From a virus: a stretch of DNA of 64,000 nt. The notes under the pieces are model-generated. The model made no database searches, had not been told where the DNA came from, and saw only the letters and a list, made by a program, of their open reading frames with translations. The DNA lies in the IMG/VR virus record IMGVR_UViG_3300042691_044682, positions 1-64,000 of that record; one strand, written 5' to 3'. Below are positions 10,747-27,739 of this stretch, one piece after another; within the stretch, counting starts at the first letter, position 1, and every line of letters starts with the position of its first letter. The translations under genes were made by a program, and so were the position numbers.

Positions 10747-11241
10747 TCAGCCCTCCTTTGCCTTGGTGACGGCGACGGCCGCATCATCCACCGACACGAC
10801 CCCCAGGTTTTTCGCCAGCCCACCCCGAATGGCGCGCGGCGTGTCGCGGCGGGGGCAGATGCCCTGCCGGCAGATAACCTCGTACCCGTCCGGGCACGCG
10901 CAGTTGCCCCCAACCCGCGATATGGCCTGGGCAGAAGGCGGGCGCAGCAGGGCGCCGACCTGGATCTCGTCCCGCATGAGCCAGATGGCGTCGGCGGCGT
11001 GCTTCAGCGCACGCGCCACGGCCTCGGCCCGGCGGCCGTTCTCACCGCGCAGGGGCCGAAGCGGCTGCAGATCAGCCCGGATGGCGTCGATCAGGTGGGC
11101 GGCGTCGCCGAGCGCACAGCGCATCGCCACGGGGTCGTGGCCGACCTTCTCGCGGTACGCCCGCATGGCGGCCAGCGCCTGCTGCTCACGCTGGCCCACT
11201 TGGCGCTCGGCGGGAATCGGATCGTTCGGGTCGTCGCTCAT
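10747..11241 (-). CDS. Hypothetical protein
   Basis: ATG 11241 overlaps the upstream stop. Confidence 0.6.
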   Translation of the reverse strand: MSDDPNDPIPAERQVGQREQQALAAMRAYREKVGHDPVAMRCALGDAAHLIDAIRADLQPLRPLRGENGRRAEAVARALKHAADAIWLMRDEIQVGALLRPPSAQAISRVGGNCACPDGYEVICRQGICPRRDTPRAIRGGLAKNLGVVSVDDAAVAVTKAKEG

Positions 11242-11714
11242 CGCACCCCGAACCTCTGCTTCGCCGCGGCGAGCACCCCGTCCCTGGACGACGCGACGGC
11301 GCGATCGATCGTCACCAGCGAGGCCGGACGACGCGCCCAGGCCGGCAGCCTGATCAGCACCGCGGTCTTGCCCTGCAGCTTCGTCTCCACGGCTTCGGCG
11401 GCCTTGGTCTGCGTCACCTCCATCCAGGGAAAGAGCGGCGTGACGAGCCGCGCCGCCGCGGTGTGCAGGACGTCGCGCAGCTTGCGCCCCTGCGCATCCA
11501 TCTCCGTGGCGGCGCGGATCCGCAGCCAGCCCTCCTGCTCGCCCATGCCCTCCTCCACGACCACGCGCGTTTCGGCGGTCCAGCCGAGCGTGGTGAGGAT
11601 CATCCCCGTGAACAGGATCGAGACGCCGAAGCCCTTGTCCTTCTTCACAATGGACAGGCGCACCTGGTCCTGCGCCCGCCCGGGCAGTGGGAACTCGATC
11701 GGCGCCCAGGTCAT
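11238..11714 (-). CDS. Hypothetical protein
   Basis: ATGA-coupled ORF. Confidence 0.65.
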   Translation of the reverse strand: MTWAPIEFPLPGRAQDQVRLSIVKKDKGFGVSILFTGMILTTLGWTAETRVVVEEGMGEQEGWLRIRAATEMDAQGRKLRDVLHTAAARLVTPLFPWMEVTQTKAAEAVETKLQGKTAVLIRLPAWARRPASLVTIDRAVASSRDGVLAAAKQRFGVR

Positions 11715-12142
11715 GCCACCACCGCCGCCGCATAGGTCGCCGGGGCCCGCTTATCCACCGCGAAGCCTCGCGCGCGCAGCCACTCGATGACGTCCTCCTC
11801 GCGGTCCGACGAGAGGCGGTCGAAGAGCGCCAGCACCTGACCCAGCCGGCGATGAACGGCCGGGTAGTTGATATCGACGGACTCCCGCAGGCGGATCAGC
11901 TGCAAGAGGCGGTCGGTTTCCTTCTGGCGGTCCTGCATGCCCCGGCGATAGCCATCGGCTTGGCCACGATAACGCCGGGCTTCGTTTTCGGCCGCCTCCA
12001 GCGCGGCCCGAAGATCGGCCACCAGCACCCCGAGCGCCGTGATCCGCTCCGCCGCCCAGGCGGCGGCCTCGATCACGTCGTCGGAACCGCTCGCGACCCG
12101 CCCAGCGTCACAGAGCAGTTCCATCCTCATGTCGTCGGTCAT
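11711..12142 (-). CDS. Hypothetical coiled-coil protein
   Basis: ATGA-coupled ORF. Confidence 0.65.
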   Translation of the reverse strand: MTDDMRMELLCDAGRVASGSDDVIEAAAWAAERITALGVLVADLRAALEAAENEARRYRGQADGYRRGMQDRQKETDRLLQLIRLRESVDINYPAVHRRLGQVLALFDRLSSDREEDVIEWLRARGFAVDKRAPATYAAAVVA

Positions 12143-12432
12143 GTTCAGGATCCTCCTCGCTCGTTTCCTCTCCCGGCCCCGGCGCCTCGCCGAGGTCGAA
12201 GGTGATGGTCACCAGGACGCGGCGCCGCCAGCGCATGACGCCCGCCTGGCCGCCGCCGGCGACGACGTCGCCAAGGGTGCGCCAGCCGAGCGCCGGGCCG
12301 CACCAGACGTCGATGCCGGCGCCCAGGCCCTCGAGGTCGCCGCGGATGGTGCCCACGGGGCGCTCGACGTCCTCGCTGGGCGGCTGGAGCGGGGCGAACA
12401 GGTCATCGATCACTGCTCACCCCGCTCCCTGC

Positions 12433-12804
12433 CGGCGTTGCGGTGCCTTGCCCTGCGAAGCCCTGCCTTGCCTGCGATGCCTTGCGATGCCCAGCCTCGC
12501 CTCGCCTTGCCTTGCCTGCCCTGCCCGGCCACGCCAGACCCAGCCCCGCCAGGCCATGCCTGCCGTGCCCCGCCATGCCCGGCCACGCCGTGCGCCGCGG
12601 TGCCTCGCCTTGCCTGCGCTGCCATGCCCCGCCAAGCCCCGCCATGACTAGCCATGCCTGCGGTGCCCTGCCCCGCCACGCCAGACCCAGCGACGCCTTG
12701 CCTTGCCTGCCCTGCCCGGCCACGCCAGACCGTGCCGTGCCATGCCTTGCCTGCCATGCGGTGGCACGCCTCGCCTAGCCTCGCCTAGCCCGGCGCCGCC
12801 TGCG
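12433..12804 (-). ncRNA. GGY-NN pentamer array A (8 units; putative guide RNAs)
   Basis: 68 in-phase pentamers (mostly GGC-NN; GGT/CGC/GTC variants) in units of 9,8,9,8,10,8,8,8, each preceded by GGCA/CGCA. Confidence 0.85.
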
Positions 12805-13237
12805 TCGGACCTTCCACCAGCGCCCCCATTGCCGCCTCGATGTGCGGCGCCAGGGACGCGTAGCGGCGGTACCGCTCGAGGACGCGATCGACATCGAGCC
12901 GCATCCGCCGCAGGAGCACCTCCATGTCATCCTCGTCCTGCAGGACGGCGGTGATGGTCCGGTAGGTGTTCCTGGCGACGGTCACGTAGGCGCGGACGGG
13001 CACCAACGCATCGTCCGGCCGCGGCAGCATCGTCACCGCGGCGCGGATCACCCGCCCGGCCTCGATCAGCAGCAGCTTCGCCTGCGCGTCGTCCGCATCC
13101 CAGGTGAAGGCCGCGTGGAGCGCCGTGTTGGAGCTCCGCGCGAAGTCGATCACAGCCTCCTTGGTGAGGACGCCGCCGTTCATCTGGCGGACGACCTCGA
13201 GCTCGGCGAGCTGCGACTGGGTCAGCATCCTGCTCAC
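12785..13237 (-). CDS. Accessory protein coupled to the RAMP gene
   Basis: GTG overlaps the RAMP stop (GTGA); LTKEAVIDFAR...LHAAFTWD motif; 3' end overlaps array A. Confidence 0.8.
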   Translation of the reverse strand: MSRMLTQSQLAELEVVRQMNGGVLTKEAVIDFARSSNTALHAAFTWDADDAQAKLLLIEAGRVIRAAVTMLPRPDDALVPVRAYVTVARNTYRTITAVLQDEDDMEVLLRRMRLDVDRVLERYRRYASLAPHIEAAMGALVEGPTQAAPG

Positions 13238-13926
13238 GGCCGCTCCTGGATCCGGAAGCTGCCCCAGCCGACGCCGGCGCTGTTCTTGCTGTCCGCCCGG
13301 CCCTCGCCGATGCCGACCTGCTCGCCCACCCGCGACATCAGGTTCGCGATGTCGGTGGCGGTGAACTGGTCGGCGTCGAAGCGGACCGTCACGTCCATCT
13401 CCCACTCGCGCCACATGGGCCGGGTGCGGATGTCGATGACCCCCGTCGCGTTGCGGGTGGGCAGGTCGCTGCGGATGGGCTCGGGGCCGAGGATGCGCAC
13501 CAGCGGCGTGCCGTCGATCCGGTCGAAGCCGTGCGGCTCCACGAAGACCGACATCTTCGCCAGCGTCATCTTGAAGTTCACGAGCCGGCAGGCGGAGATC
13601 ATGCCGCTGCGGAAGGCCCCGGCATGGACGCCGTCCCAGCCATCGGTGGAGATGTGCCGGGCCTCGTTGAAGGCGGCGTCGAAGTCCTTCGCGTCGCGCT
13701 TCTTCTTGCCGCGGGCGGTGGACCCGGCGGCCTGCTTCTCCATCATCGCCTGCATGGCCTTCGCGGGGAACCGCGAGATCACCAGCGGCGCGGTGCCGAT
13801 GATGTGGAAGGTCACCATGCGCATGTTGGGCGCGGTGATGGTGATCGGCTGGGCGCCGTCGCCCAGCTCGTCGCCGCGCCCCTTGGCCGATCGCTTGGCC
13901 TTGGCGCCGGCAGTCATCCCATCCAT
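13234..13926 (-). CDS. Stand-alone Cas7/RAMP-like protein (Vipr-like)
   Basis: 230 aa; beta1 VTFHIIGTAPL, VHAGAFRSGM helix and C-terminal Gly-rich loop VGIGEGR...GVGWGSF; AAGGA RBS before ATG 13926. Confidence 0.8.
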   Translation of the reverse strand: MDGMTAGAKAKRSAKGRGDELGDGAQPITITAPNMRMVTFHIIGTAPLVISRFPAKAMQAMMEKQAAGSTARGKKKRDAKDFDAAFNEARHISTDGWDGVHAGAFRSGMISACRLVNFKMTLAKMSVFVEPHGFDRIDGTPLVRILGPEPIRSDLPTRNATGVIDIRTRPMWREWEMDVTVRFDADQFTATDIANLMSRVGEQVGIGEGRADSKNSAGVGWGSFRIQERP

Positions 13927-13980
13927 GATGTCGATCCTTCGTTCAGAAGATCCCCGGGCGGCCAATCCGCCTGGGGTGGT

Positions 13981-14014
13981 ACGGGGAGCGGGTTCCAGGC
14001 CCGCTCCCCGTTTT
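13981..14014. terminator. 12-bp perfect hairpin at the 3' end of array B
   Basis: ACGGGGAGCGGG-TTCCAGG-CCCGCTCCCCGT, followed by T's on the + strand. Confidence 0.65.
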
Positions 14015-14019
14015 CGTGC

Positions 14020-14319
14020 CGGCCTCGACCGGCCTGGCCTTGCCTCGCCGAGCCGAGCGAAGCCCGACCGCGCCTAGCCACGCCTGCCGTGCCCGGCCGT
14101 GCCTTGCCAGTCCACGCCCTGCCTGCCGTGCCCGGCCGCGCCAGTCCTCGCCCTTCCAGTCCTAGCCAAGCCTGCCGCGCCATGCCGAGCCCCGCCTGTC
14201 CGTGACTAGCCATGCCTGCGGTGCCTCGCCACGCCCTGCCACGCCTAACCAGGCCTCTACACGCCTCGCCTGCCGTGCCACGCCCGGCCTAGCCCCGCGA
14301 AACGCAGCCAGGCCCCGAC
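14020..14319 (-). ncRNA. GGY-NN pentamer array B (6 units; putative guide RNAs)
   Basis: 56 in-phase pentamers in units of 9,10,8,9,7,13 separated by GGCA/CGCA. Confidence 0.85.
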
Positions 14320-14360
14320 ACGGCTCAATGAAAGACATTTCAATGTGATCCTGTCCAGCG

Positions 14361-14386
14361 GAAAAATACATCTAGATGTGTTTTTC
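14361..14386. promoter_or_regulatory. AT-rich palindrome upstream of array B
   Basis: GAAAAATACATCTAGATGTGTTTTTC; 26 bp with one mismatched pair. Confidence 0.55.
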
Positions 14387-15233
14387 ACGCAGGGTCGATC
14401 GGATCCTCCGGCGGCGCCGGCACAGGCGGACGCTCCGTCCCGCCCTCCATGAACTCCACCAAGCGCTGGTACGCCTCCAGCTCCGCCGTCGGCATCTTCG
14501 CGAAGTCCAGCACCAGCTTCCGCTCCGTCTGGGTCACCTCGTGCTGGTGCTCGATCGGCGCCCCATCGACCCCCGACAGCTCCACCCGCTTCGGCCGATC
14601 CTCCATCCCCAGCGCCTTGCGCCGCTGCACCTGGATGCTCTCGGCCAGCCGCGTCAGCGCCGTGATCTTCGACGCGATCGCGTCCTTCCCATCCGCCAGC
14701 ACCTCCAGCACCTCGAGGTCGGGGTCCTTGTGGTCGGTCATCACGAACAGGAGCTTCGTCACGTGCCGGTGCAGCTGGTCGAACGTCTCGGACAGCTGGT
14801 CGATCCGCCGGAGGTCGCGCAGCACCCCCACCTTCATCACCTCGGCCACCCGGTCGATCGTCAGCTCCCGCGCCTCGGCCACCAGCGAGGTGGGCTGATT
14901 ATTTTCCTGATCTTCTGGGTCCGAGGGGTCCGAAAAATCGGACGAATGGTCCGAGCGCTCCTTGGGAGCCAGCTTTTCCCTGCGGTCCGAGGGGTCCGAG
15001 GGCTCGGACTTTGGGCGGCTGGCCTCGTCGTGTTCGAGGACGGCGCGGGCGACGGCGGCTGACTGTGCGGCGGCGAGGGCGGCGGGGGAACGGGCCCAGC
15101 CTTCGCTCACGGCGCGCTTGCGGATGGCCTTTTCGGAGACGTTGAACTTGGCGGCGAGAGCGAGGTTGGAGACTGTCCCCATCTCCCACTCGGCCCGGAG
15201 GGCGAGCCATTCCTCGGGGCTGAGGGCGGGCAT
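14385..15233 (-). CDS. terS: Terminase small subunit
   Basis: N-terminal HTH (LAAKFNVSEKAIRKRAVSEGW) and ELSGVDGAPIE motif. Confidence 0.8.
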   Translation of the reverse strand: MPALSPEEWLALRAEWEMGTVSNLALAAKFNVSEKAIRKRAVSEGWARSPAALAAAQSAAVARAVLEHDEASRPKSEPSDPSDRREKLAPKERSDHSSDFSDPSDPEDQENNQPTSLVAEARELTIDRVAEVMKVGVLRDLRRIDQLSETFDQLHRHVTKLLFVMTDHKDPDLEVLEVLADGKDAIASKITALTRLAESIQVQRRKALGMEDRPKRVELSGVDGAPIEHQHEVTQTERKLVLDFAKMPTAELEAYQRLVEFMEGGTERPPVPAPPEDPIDPA

Positions 15234-15236
15234 GTG

Positions 15237-15455
15237 TCAGCCCTTCTGCGGGACGACCCGGATGGGCGCGACCTCGAACTGCATGCCGCAGTGCTCGCAG
15301 AGGGGGAAGCGGGCTTCGGCCAGCGCGACGTAGGCGCCGCTGCGGGCTTCGTGCCAGTCATCACATGCCAGGATGTGCGGGCGCTGGCAGCATGGGCAGA
15401 GCACCTCCATCTCGACGGGGCGCAGGGGCGAACGGGGCAGAGGGAGGGTGGTCAT
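15237..15455 (-). CDS. Small zinc-ribbon protein
   Basis: CPCC...CEHC. Confidence 0.6.
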   Translation of the reverse strand: MTTLPLPRSPLRPVEMEVLCPCCQRPHILACDDWHEARSGAYVALAEARFPLCEHCGMQFEVAPIRVVPQKG

Positions 15456-15610
15456 ACCCCTCCTCCCCCGGCGAGGCCGCAGAACCCGCGCCGCGCCGCG
15501 CCGAGGGTCCGGCGCCAGACCCGGGATTGGCCGTCGGAGATCTCGTAGGACGGCACCCTGGCGAAGGGGCACCAGCGCTCGCGGGCGTCGGCTTCGGTGA
15601 GAGCGGTCAT
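15452..15610 (-). CDS. Small hypothetical protein
   Basis: MTALTEADARERWCPFARV; ATGA-coupled at both ends; below the track cutoff. Confidence 0.55.
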   Translation of the reverse strand: MTALTEADARERWCPFARVPSYEISDGQSRVWRRTLGAARRGFCGLAGGGGV

Positions 15611-26731: not shown

Positions 26732-26825
26732 GCCCCCGGCGCCGAAACGCCGGGGGCCGCTGGAGCCTTGCAGTGCCGAGCCCAGCCAAGCCATGCGCTA
26801 CCCCGCCTGGCCTGCCGCACCGGCC
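26732..26825 (-). ncRNA. Orphan single-unit GGY-NN RNA (unit C)
   Basis: GGCA plus 10 pentamers (26812-26763), 10-bp hairpin at 26732-26757, promoter immediately upstream. Confidence 0.7.
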
Positions 26826-27346: not shown

Positions 27347-27739
27347 ATGCAGGAGCAGCTCGTCGAGCTGCCCCACAGCCCTTATGCGGCGCTGTGGGCG
27401 ACGCTCGACAAGGACGCGCTCGCCATCGCCGAAACCAGAGGCTGGCATGAGCTCAAGCCCAACCAGGAACCGCCTTACGAGGAGTGGCTAGGCCACATCA
27501 TCCTCGCCGGCGGTCACTTCATGCTCCGTCGCGACGCCTTCGAGCTCGCGACGTGGCTGGGCGACAACGAGCTCATGGGACGCCTCTTCGACGCCCTCCC
27601 ATGGGCCGGTGACACCCTCGCCCCCCTCACGCTCGAGGAGGTCAAGGCAGACCTGCGCGCCTTCATCGCCCCCATCCAGGAGACCATCGCGGACGAGAAC
27701 CAGTCCGAAATCCCCTGGCACGCGGCACAAGCCGCCTAG
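27347..27739 (+). CDS. Hypothetical protein
   Basis: GGAGA RBS. Confidence 0.65.
   Translation: MQEQLVELPHSPYAALWATLDKDALAIAETRGWHELKPNQEPPYEEWLGHIILAGGHFMLRRDAFELATWLGDNELMGRLFDALPWAGDTLAPLTLEEVKADLRAFIAPIQETIADENQSEIPWHAAQAA

Follow-up and report, generated by a model that had tools for sequence, protein, structure and literature searches.

The arrays and genes of the locus

The virus record IMGVR_UViG_3300042691_044682 is a single contig of 92,321 base pairs (bp) with a G+C content of 71%, and its first 64,000 nucleotides (nt) are the stretch analysed here, which we call the window. On the minus strand of this window lies a tract of short GGC-based repeats (array A), which an earlier note, made from the letters alone, had read as an array of guide RNAs with fixed GG anchors and variable dinucleotides (NN). 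This reading agrees with the Cas7-like protein encoded beside the tract and with the published architecture of VIPR, a CRISPR-like DNA silencer that was first described in 2026, mostly in phages, and that consists of a lone ancestral RAMP protein (Vipr), an accessory gene (vap) and guide RNAs (vrRNAs) of alternating GGY and NN (bioRxiv 10.64898/2026.04.26.720920). In the order of the minus strand, the candidate VIPR locus comprises array B (14314-14020), vipr (13926-13234), vap (13237-12785) and array A, followed by small genes. Array A is bounded by genes on both sides, with a stop codon at 12785 and a GTG start codon at 12413. The features are:

12433..12800, minus strand: array A, a putative vrRNA array of eight head-to-tail units, A1 to A8 (two parses and a period-5 scan)
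12800-12752, minus strand: unit A1 (parses)
12751-12708, minus strand: unit A2 (parses)
12707-12659, minus strand: unit A3 (parses)
12658-12615, minus strand: unit A4 (parses)
12614-12561, minus strand: unit A5 (parses)
12560-12517, minus strand: unit A6 (parses)
12516-12473, minus strand: unit A7 (parses)
12472-12433, minus strand: unit A8 (parses)
13234..13926, minus strand: vipr, 230 amino acids (protein P0003), a lone Cas7-like RAMP (homologues, AlphaFold2 model, Foldseek, VIA, PDB profile match)
12785..13237, minus strand: vap-like gene, 150 amino acids (tblastn homologues, coupling to vipr)
14020..14314, minus strand: array B, six units, B1 to B5 of 7-10 pentamers and B6 longer and degenerate (parses; upstream of vipr)
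26765..26812, minus strand: solo unit C1, about 10 pentamers (period-5 scan, parse)

The arrays were parsed twice and independently, with a greedy parser and with a dynamic-programming parser. Read along the minus strand from 12800 to 12433, array A proceeds in unbroken 5-base steps, each made of a fixed GGC and two free bases (NN), the anchor triplet being occasionally CGC, GGT, GTC or GCC. Its units hold 8-10 GGC-NN pentamers each. A1 to A7 each close with a 4-base step, GGCA or CGCA, at which the register moves by one base and the next unit abuts, and the unit length is 5n+4 bases (44, 49 or 54). In the dynamic-programming parse this step stands at 7/7 internal boundaries of array A and at 5/5 of array B, where the punctuation is likewise GGCA or CGCA, and the last unit, A8, runs into the ribosome-binding site of the following gene. 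Both parsers reproduced the eight units and every NN series that had been listed for them, together with those of B2, B3 and B5, and the reported count of 134 pentamers over the three loci (arrays A and B and C1) is in accord with our independent total of about 133-134.

The overlap of A1 with the last codons of the accessory gene, which had also been pointed out, is real: the A1 pentamers GGCGG, CGCCG and GGCTA cover the end of vap (...QAAPG-stop), with TAG at 12787-12785. Since the first two of these cover the last vap codons, they are probably just coding sequence, and the true start of A1 is probably at 12790. A period-5 scan of the window gave three clusters only (12479-12800, 14022-14314 and 26765-26812), all with GCC on the plus strand and hence GGC on the minus strand, and none of the opposite polarity; three weaker signals from other parts of the 92-kb genome proved to be ordinary coding sequence and not arrays. 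The third cluster, C1, lies 12 kb from the VIPR locus and is followed by a G+C-rich hairpin.

Array A also carries a trace of its own history. A 38-nt sequence occurs twice without mismatch on the minus strand, at 12731-12694 and at 12540-12503, and comprises the last four pentamers of a unit, the GGCA step and the start of the next unit (A2/A3 in one copy and A6/A7 in the other). The two copies are 191 nt apart, which corresponds to four units. As products of this duplication, A3 and A7 begin with identical bases, and the duplication suggests that the array grows or is shuffled by segments and not unit by unit.

Other kinds of elements were searched for around the arrays. Tandem Repeats Finder and the parses showed 5-nt periodicity and its multiples only, and direct repeats of the CRISPR type (about 25-40 nt) with spacers are absent. 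The window gave no Rfam match at gathering thresholds and no tRNA or tmRNA, and a scan of 11500-15500 found no sigma-70 promoter (0 against a shuffled mean of 0.2) and no terminator beside the arrays on the minus strand. The array RNA has a predicted folding energy of -192.7 kcal/mol, against -180.2 ± 5.0 kcal/mol for shuffled sequences, and is more stable than 98 of the 100 shuffles.

Vipr, its partner gene and the arrays of related loci

The product of vipr has at least 4928 homologues at E <= 0.001. Its AlphaFold2 model (predicted local distance difference test, pLDDT, 79.2) gave 29 Foldseek matches at E <= 0.001, the best with E 8.7e-5, and all of them are CRISPR effector complexes of types III, III-E and VII. 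In the VIA structural search (all against representatives) the top 31 rows are CRISPR RAMPs with Z 10.3-6.4, which are matches to Cmr4, Csm3 and the Cas7 domains of gRAMP. A profile built from 30 homologues was compared with 177,635 PDB sequences, and its top match is the 'SUSP1 Vipr protein' (36pp_D; E 9.9e-4, 21.9 bits). The alignment covers 46 residues of the glycine-loop (G-loop) region around G-x-G-x-x-RP, and the second-ranked match has an E value of 0.23. Vipr proteins are characterised by an RRM core, a G-loop and a thumb, and SUSP1 Vipr has been found experimentally to be an RNA-guided DNA binder (bioRxiv 10.64898/2026.04.26.720920); structures of the SUSP1 VIPR system are the subject of bioRxiv 10.64898/2026.04.26.720927 and PDB entry 36pp, and further papers on VIPR are bioRxiv 10.64898/2026.10.15.759431 and 10.64898/2026.10.21.760802.

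Relatives of this Vipr reach an identity of at most 64% among the loci that we fetched, and 70-74% among relatives known as proteins only. Some homologues are encoded in isolated or named phages, where they are annotated as hypothetical proteins. One, with 63.5% identity, belongs to Cyanophage Cy-LDV1 (BK059895.1, 31484-32092), and others, with about 31% identity, are found in 25 Mycobacterium phage records (e.g., Donkeykong, NC_051648.1, 37364-37963).

The vap-like gene is tied to vipr both here and in the relatives. The stop codon of vipr and the ATG of vap overlap as ATGA (13234-13237), which points to translational coupling of the pair. With tblastn, a vap homologue was detected on the vipr strand in 104 of the fetched loci, every one of which encodes Vipr; of the 120 dereplicated loci, 78 have one. 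In VIPR systems generally, the product of vap is predicted to interact with DNA. The vap product matched no Pfam family, and a profile search of the viral contig collection with it gave no match. Its model (pLDDT 74.8) returned nothing at E <= 0.001 with Foldseek, the weak rows (E 0.1-1) being mostly winged-helix DNA binders.

In VIPR systems, tracts of at least four GGY/NN (YNNGG) pentamers flank vipr on its own strand. The association of vipr with arrays was examined in 147 fetched loci of relatives (41 genome, 26 viral and 80 metagenome), from which 120 remained after dereplication. Period-5 GGY arrays lie on the vipr strand in 96 of the 120 loci, with a total of 26,902 nt, and on the opposite strand in 6 of the 120, with a total of 546 nt. 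In the genome-derived loci alone, 35 of 41 carry arrays on the vipr strand. The Vipr loci with arrays come from many phyla. No guide is common to this phage and the array of any relative, and six matches to B4 proved to be one non-array sequence that is repeated in related loci. What the relatives have kept is the 5-base step with free NN.

The punctuation of the units was examined across the family with a parser that allows 4-, 5- and 6-base steps and makes no assumption on the odd base. It used 5600 pentamers and 497 four-base steps, and six-base steps did not occur. Among the 497 four-base steps, 464 are NGCA, including 372 that are GGCA, and units with such a step at both ends mostly comprise 7-13 pentamers, the peak being at 9-10. 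As these NGCA steps and unit lengths recur throughout the family, the punctuation of units is a conserved feature of the Vipr clade.

The wider surroundings of the locus are those of a phage without a close relative in the collections searched. The large terminase gene lies at 8142-9851 (Pfam Terminase_6C, E 7e-18; phrog_38, E 7e-74), and the best identity of the large terminase protein (TerL) is 41% in the viral contig collection, 35% in the genome contig collection and 37% among isolated Rhizobium phages. Megablast of positions 1-24000 against phages gave no match. Just upstream of array B, a gene for 282 amino acids (14385-15233, minus strand) has an N-terminus that resembles small terminases (phrog_1206, E 3.5e-8, residues 4-71); the VIPR locus and several unknown genes separate it from the large terminase gene, at a distance of 4.5 kb. 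Near C1, an open reading frame of 130 amino acids (27347-27739, plus strand) is 63% identical to a homologue, P0154, encoded on a metagenome contig of 88 kb, which shows that a related large phage exists.

The stretch is present in 11 sequencing runs, none of which is listed as RNA. Logan contigs from four of these (X3, X4, X5 and X8) were mapped on 11000-15500 and cover the flanks of the locus with no mismatch, so the same phage is present in all four; runs with contigs identical to the flanks carry two different habitat labels. The contigs of the four runs break inside both arrays, and most pieces from the array regions are less than 90% alike, which are probably from the arrays of other organisms.

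Composition of the variable dinucleotides

The NN of the phage arrays have a G+C content of 0.46, and those of a first set of relatives 0.44, against 0.71 for the genome, which agrees with the earlier observation that NN are richer in A/T than the genome. Part of the difference follows from how VIPR is known to read DNA. The system targets double-stranded DNA in such a way that successive NN are one skipped base apart, this base being usually the codon wobble (bioRxiv 10.64898/2026.04.26.720920). The genes of the phage itself have G+C contents of 0.69, 0.55 and 0.89 at codon positions 1, 2 and 3, respectively, and the A/T-richness of NN arises partly because the published code reads positions 1 and 2 and skips the GC-rich wobble. 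Over 67 loci, the G+C content of NN rises with that of the locus (slope 0.39, r 0.42, p 4e-4). In the relatives it stays below the G+C content of both codon position 1 and codon position 2, mainly from an excess of A at the first N.

The inner NN of the family also carry a codon signature. When six models of frame and strand were compared in three G+C bins (616, 845 and 1018 NN), sense codon positions 1-2 gave the best fit in all three bins and were better than a uniform model. The maximum-likelihood weight of the sense strand is 0.81-1.00, with a gain of 14-22 nats over a 50:50 mixture, which suggests that the guides have a sense-strand bias. The fit to codon positions 1-2 favours a period of 3 and hence a skip of one base, since with skips of 0, 2 or 3 the NN would fall in different codon phases.

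The outermost NN of the units follow rules of a different kind. The last NN before the four-base step is A-N in 11 of the 12 units of this phage. Among 323 complete units of the family, 59% have A and 5% have C at the first position of the last NN, and C stands at N4 of the first NN in 5%. Because the composition of the last NN is constrained in this way, both here and in the family, the NN adjacent to a boundary may serve the boundary rather than the target.

Two further rules had been proposed for array A. The statement that A2 to A8 all start with AA or AT is correct for this array (AA, AA, AT, AA, AT, AA and AA; 7/7), but does not extend to a general rule, as array B has such a start in 1 of 5 units and the family in 32% of the 323 complete units, against 19% at inner positions. 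Similarly, CC is indeed absent from the NN of the three loci, whereas the family shows no special avoidance of it (171 of 5241 pentamers, against 175 expected if the two positions are taken independently). The family rate predicts about 4.3 CC per 130 pentamers, and its absence here has a P of about 0.013, uncorrected for 16 dinucleotides. In the family, C is depleted at the first N (0.15 overall) and not at the second. An avoidance of CC that would keep NN from pairing with the GG anchors, as had been suggested, thus finds no support: the second N shows no shortage of C, and by prediction the array RNA folds more stably than nearly all of its shuffles. The A/T-richness of NN is thus real and largely explained, while the AA/AT starts and the lack of CC are local features of the locus.

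Interpretation and relation to known systems

Array A very probably belongs to a VIPR system carried by this phage, in which it is the downstream array of guide RNAs and of the 'staggered' type. The analyses above show the anatomy of the locus, the Cas7-like nature of the protein with its link to SUSP1 Vipr, the conservation of vipr together with vap, and the joint presence of arrays and punctuation across the family. The locus fits the published description feature by feature, which makes it another example of a kind already published and not a system of a new kind. By analogy with that description, array B, vipr, vap and array A would be transcribed together from the minus strand. The NGCA steps, which are one base short, would be the places where the transcript is cut into vrRNAs of about 40-54 nt, as the legend of fig. 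S18 in bioRxiv 10.64898/2026.04.26.720920 and the punctuation of the family suggest. Each vrRNA would then be coated by a polymer of Vipr protomers that hold every GGC in a clamp and leave the NN exposed, as published for SUSP1. The 8-10 NN pairs of a guide may base-pair with double-stranded DNA that has the same dinucleotides one skipped base apart, as published for type II systems and in line with the codon signature described here. Such binding would have a footprint of about 23-29 bp, typically in codon register, and would repress transcription of a competing phage or satellite. VIPR targets are known to lie in such competing phages and satellites (bioRxiv 10.64898/2026.04.26.720920).

Targets were sought on both strands with the pattern NN-x-NN-x-..., i.e., a 1-nt skip, as well as with skips of 0, 2 and 3, and guides with shuffled NN order served as the control. 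Within the phage's own 92-kb genome, no guide beats its shuffles at skips of 0-2 except for a weak match of B6, and a perfect score at skip 3 is the locus of the guide itself. There is thus no full self-target above the shuffled controls, as had been stated from inspection by eye, and self-targets were likewise not found in the published VIPR systems (bioRxiv 10.64898/2026.04.26.720920). The B6 match (13 NN; 19/26 with a 1-nt skip) lies at 11739-11776 on the plus strand, inside the gene at 11711-12142; its shuffles have a mean of 17.2 and a maximum of 18, and the match is probably due to chance. The best score of A6 in this genome, 13/16, is also reached by its shuffles, and guides of 8 NN reach the 80% threshold by chance even in 92 kb. 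C1 has its nearest partial match, 14/20, at 27482-27510, inside the open reading frame at 27347-27739, and by a hand count the homologues P0154 and P0155 match no more of its ten codons than the copy in this phage. At the codon level, the guides matched 152 Vipr and vap proteins no better than expected by chance.

Several results weigh against the assignment of array A to VIPR guides of the published type. Natural targets were found for 0 of 15 guides in all of the sequence searched. A smaller first scan of 0.46 Mb of loci gave no target. In 1.86 Mb of fetched loci, the numbers of matches with at least 80% of NN were 135, 128, 142 and 160 for skips of 0 to 3, against means of 143.9, 148.6, 145.8 and 143.3 for shuffled guides, and 310 guides of the family searched against 1.84 Mb with arrays masked did not differ from shuffled guides at any skip or threshold. 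The exact 1-nt-skip patterns of A5, B2, A3 and C1 had no match in the viral contig collection, and those of A5, B2 and A3 had 1, 0 and 7 matches, respectively, in the genome contig collection, which is chance level. The single A5 match is in frame (KDTGTVRIGT) in the gene of a 1968-residue PATR/PEP-CTERM surface protein from a metagenome-assembled genome of Planctomycetota; it has no second guide nearby, and about one match is expected by chance. The seven A3 matches are in unrelated genomes of 36-45% G+C. Other points concern the link to the published system. For the 92 inner NN of this phage alone, the sense codon model beats the antisense model but not the uniform one. The similarity of Vipr to SUSP1 Vipr at the sequence level is borderline at E 9.9e-4 over 46 aligned residues. 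The 1-nt skip rule was tested experimentally on type II systems only, and staggered arrays are not among the architectures confirmed by small RNA sequencing (bioRxiv 10.64898/2026.04.26.720920).

The gapped search of the units that the earlier note had proposed therefore ended, under all gap models, with hit rates equal to those of shuffled NN, the outcome it had named beforehand as speaking against its catalogue, although the search had low power. Because the sequence searched holds no close relative of the phage and no known host, this result does not overturn the interpretation of the units as guides.

It is rather improbable that the arrays do encode RNAs bound by Vipr and that this clade reads its targets in another way, for example with another gap, with the inner NN only, with wobble pairing, or on RNA. 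Such a difference would explain why the 1-nt rule found no target. It would also suit the restriction of the experimental tests to type II systems and the constrained composition of the NN next to the boundaries, which may then not be read as guide. However, skips of 0, 2 and 3 performed no better than shuffles either, and the NN fit a single codon phase, positions 1-2 in sense, which favours a skip of one. In addition, the lack of targets is as easily explained by the lack of a close relative or known host, with TerL at 41% identity or less.

That the tracts are not programmable guides at all, and act instead as a scaffold or sponge that loads or titrates the RAMP protein, as a DNA-level site such as a packaging site for the small-terminase-like gene upstream, or as G-rich structural DNA, appears quite improbable. 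A triplet with a 2-nt spacer does resemble the sites of ring-shaped RNA-binding proteins such as TRAP, the gene at 14385-15233 resembles small terminases, and no target was found for any guide. Nevertheless, the arrays go with vipr and not with terminase genes, as judged from their presence on the vipr strand in most Vipr loci. The NN are hypervariable, with no guide shared between relatives, and look like sense codon positions 1-2, as is expected of guides that read sequence, and experiments have shown the homologous protein of SUSP1 to bind DNA under RNA guidance. That array A is low-complexity protein-coding sequence has almost no likelihood, for although minus-strand open reading frames (12403-12723, 12410-12757 and 12417-12635) overlap the array and all three frames are open, open frames are expected from GGC-NN composition in a genome of 71% G+C, real genes flank the array, the reading frame shifts unit by unit since each unit is 5n+4 bases long, and no peptide is retained in the relatives.

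If array A is a staggered VIPR array, as we favour, the family statistics lead to hypotheses on how such arrays are cut and read, which concern the NGCA punctuation, the units of 9-10 pentamers, the constrained NN at the boundaries and the sense-codon-like NN. We put forward, tentatively and as a possibility that may well prove wrong, that the Vipr clade has its own rules of guide format, which the VIPR passages available from the published papers do not state. In this clade, NGCA steps would delimit units whose effective guide is shorter than the unit, the guides would overwhelmingly be in the codon sense of the target, and diversification would occur by segmental duplication across unit boundaries. 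If this is true, duplications such as the 38-nt copy shared by A2/A3 and A6/A7 would supply new combinations of guides without adaptation machinery. The locus is, moreover, a well-resolved, high-G+C example of the staggered array, the least characterised VIPR architecture, which is presented only in a supplementary figure, and the catalogue of 14 guides from arrays A and B will be open to direct tests when sequences of the host or of competing elements become available.

Tracts of repeated triplets are also known from systems unrelated to VIPR. TRAP-type sites have 9-11 GAG or UAG triplets with 2-3-nt spacers, in which the triplets are recognised and the spacers carry no information. The arrays described here resemble them in having a fixed triplet, a 2-nt spacer and about 10 repeats in RNA, whereas the TRAP protein is unrelated to Vipr. 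A TRAP-like protein-binding tract, a packaging site and G-quadruplex DNA were among the candidates considered, and they were dropped in view of the VIPR papers and the fold of Vipr.

The Cas7 filaments of Class 1 CRISPR systems (Csm3, Cmr4 and the Cas7 proteins of types I, IV and VII) are closer, as they share with Vipr the RAMP fold and the arrangement of one protomer per short step of RNA. Unlike Class 1 CRISPR loci, the locus of this phage lacks CRISPR repeats and spacers, further cas genes and genes for adaptation. The steps differ as well, with 5 nt here, of which three are fixed and two are read, and 6 nt in Class 1 CRISPR, of which one is flipped.

Among VIPR systems, which are divided into types I-VII, the type II system of the Escherichia phage SUSP1 has a vrRNA upstream, vipr-vap and an array downstream, and GGY anchors, all as in the present locus, and its Vipr has marginal sequence similarity to that of this phage. 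However, the SUSP1 vrRNAs are about 100 nt long and end in an invariant structured 3' tail, whereas the units here have no tail and just a 4-base NGCA step, and they comprise 7-10 pentamers, compared with the 9-16 quoted for type II VIPR. The SUSP1 system also has a known target, a satellite. The closest counterpart is the staggered-array VIPR, which, as far as the legend of fig. S18 describes it (bioRxiv 10.64898/2026.04.26.720920), has the same lone Cas7-like Vipr, adjacent vap and GGY/NN arrays on the strand of the genes in a phage, and in which, as in arrays A and B, one unit directly follows another with no tail and with a one-base offset at every boundary.

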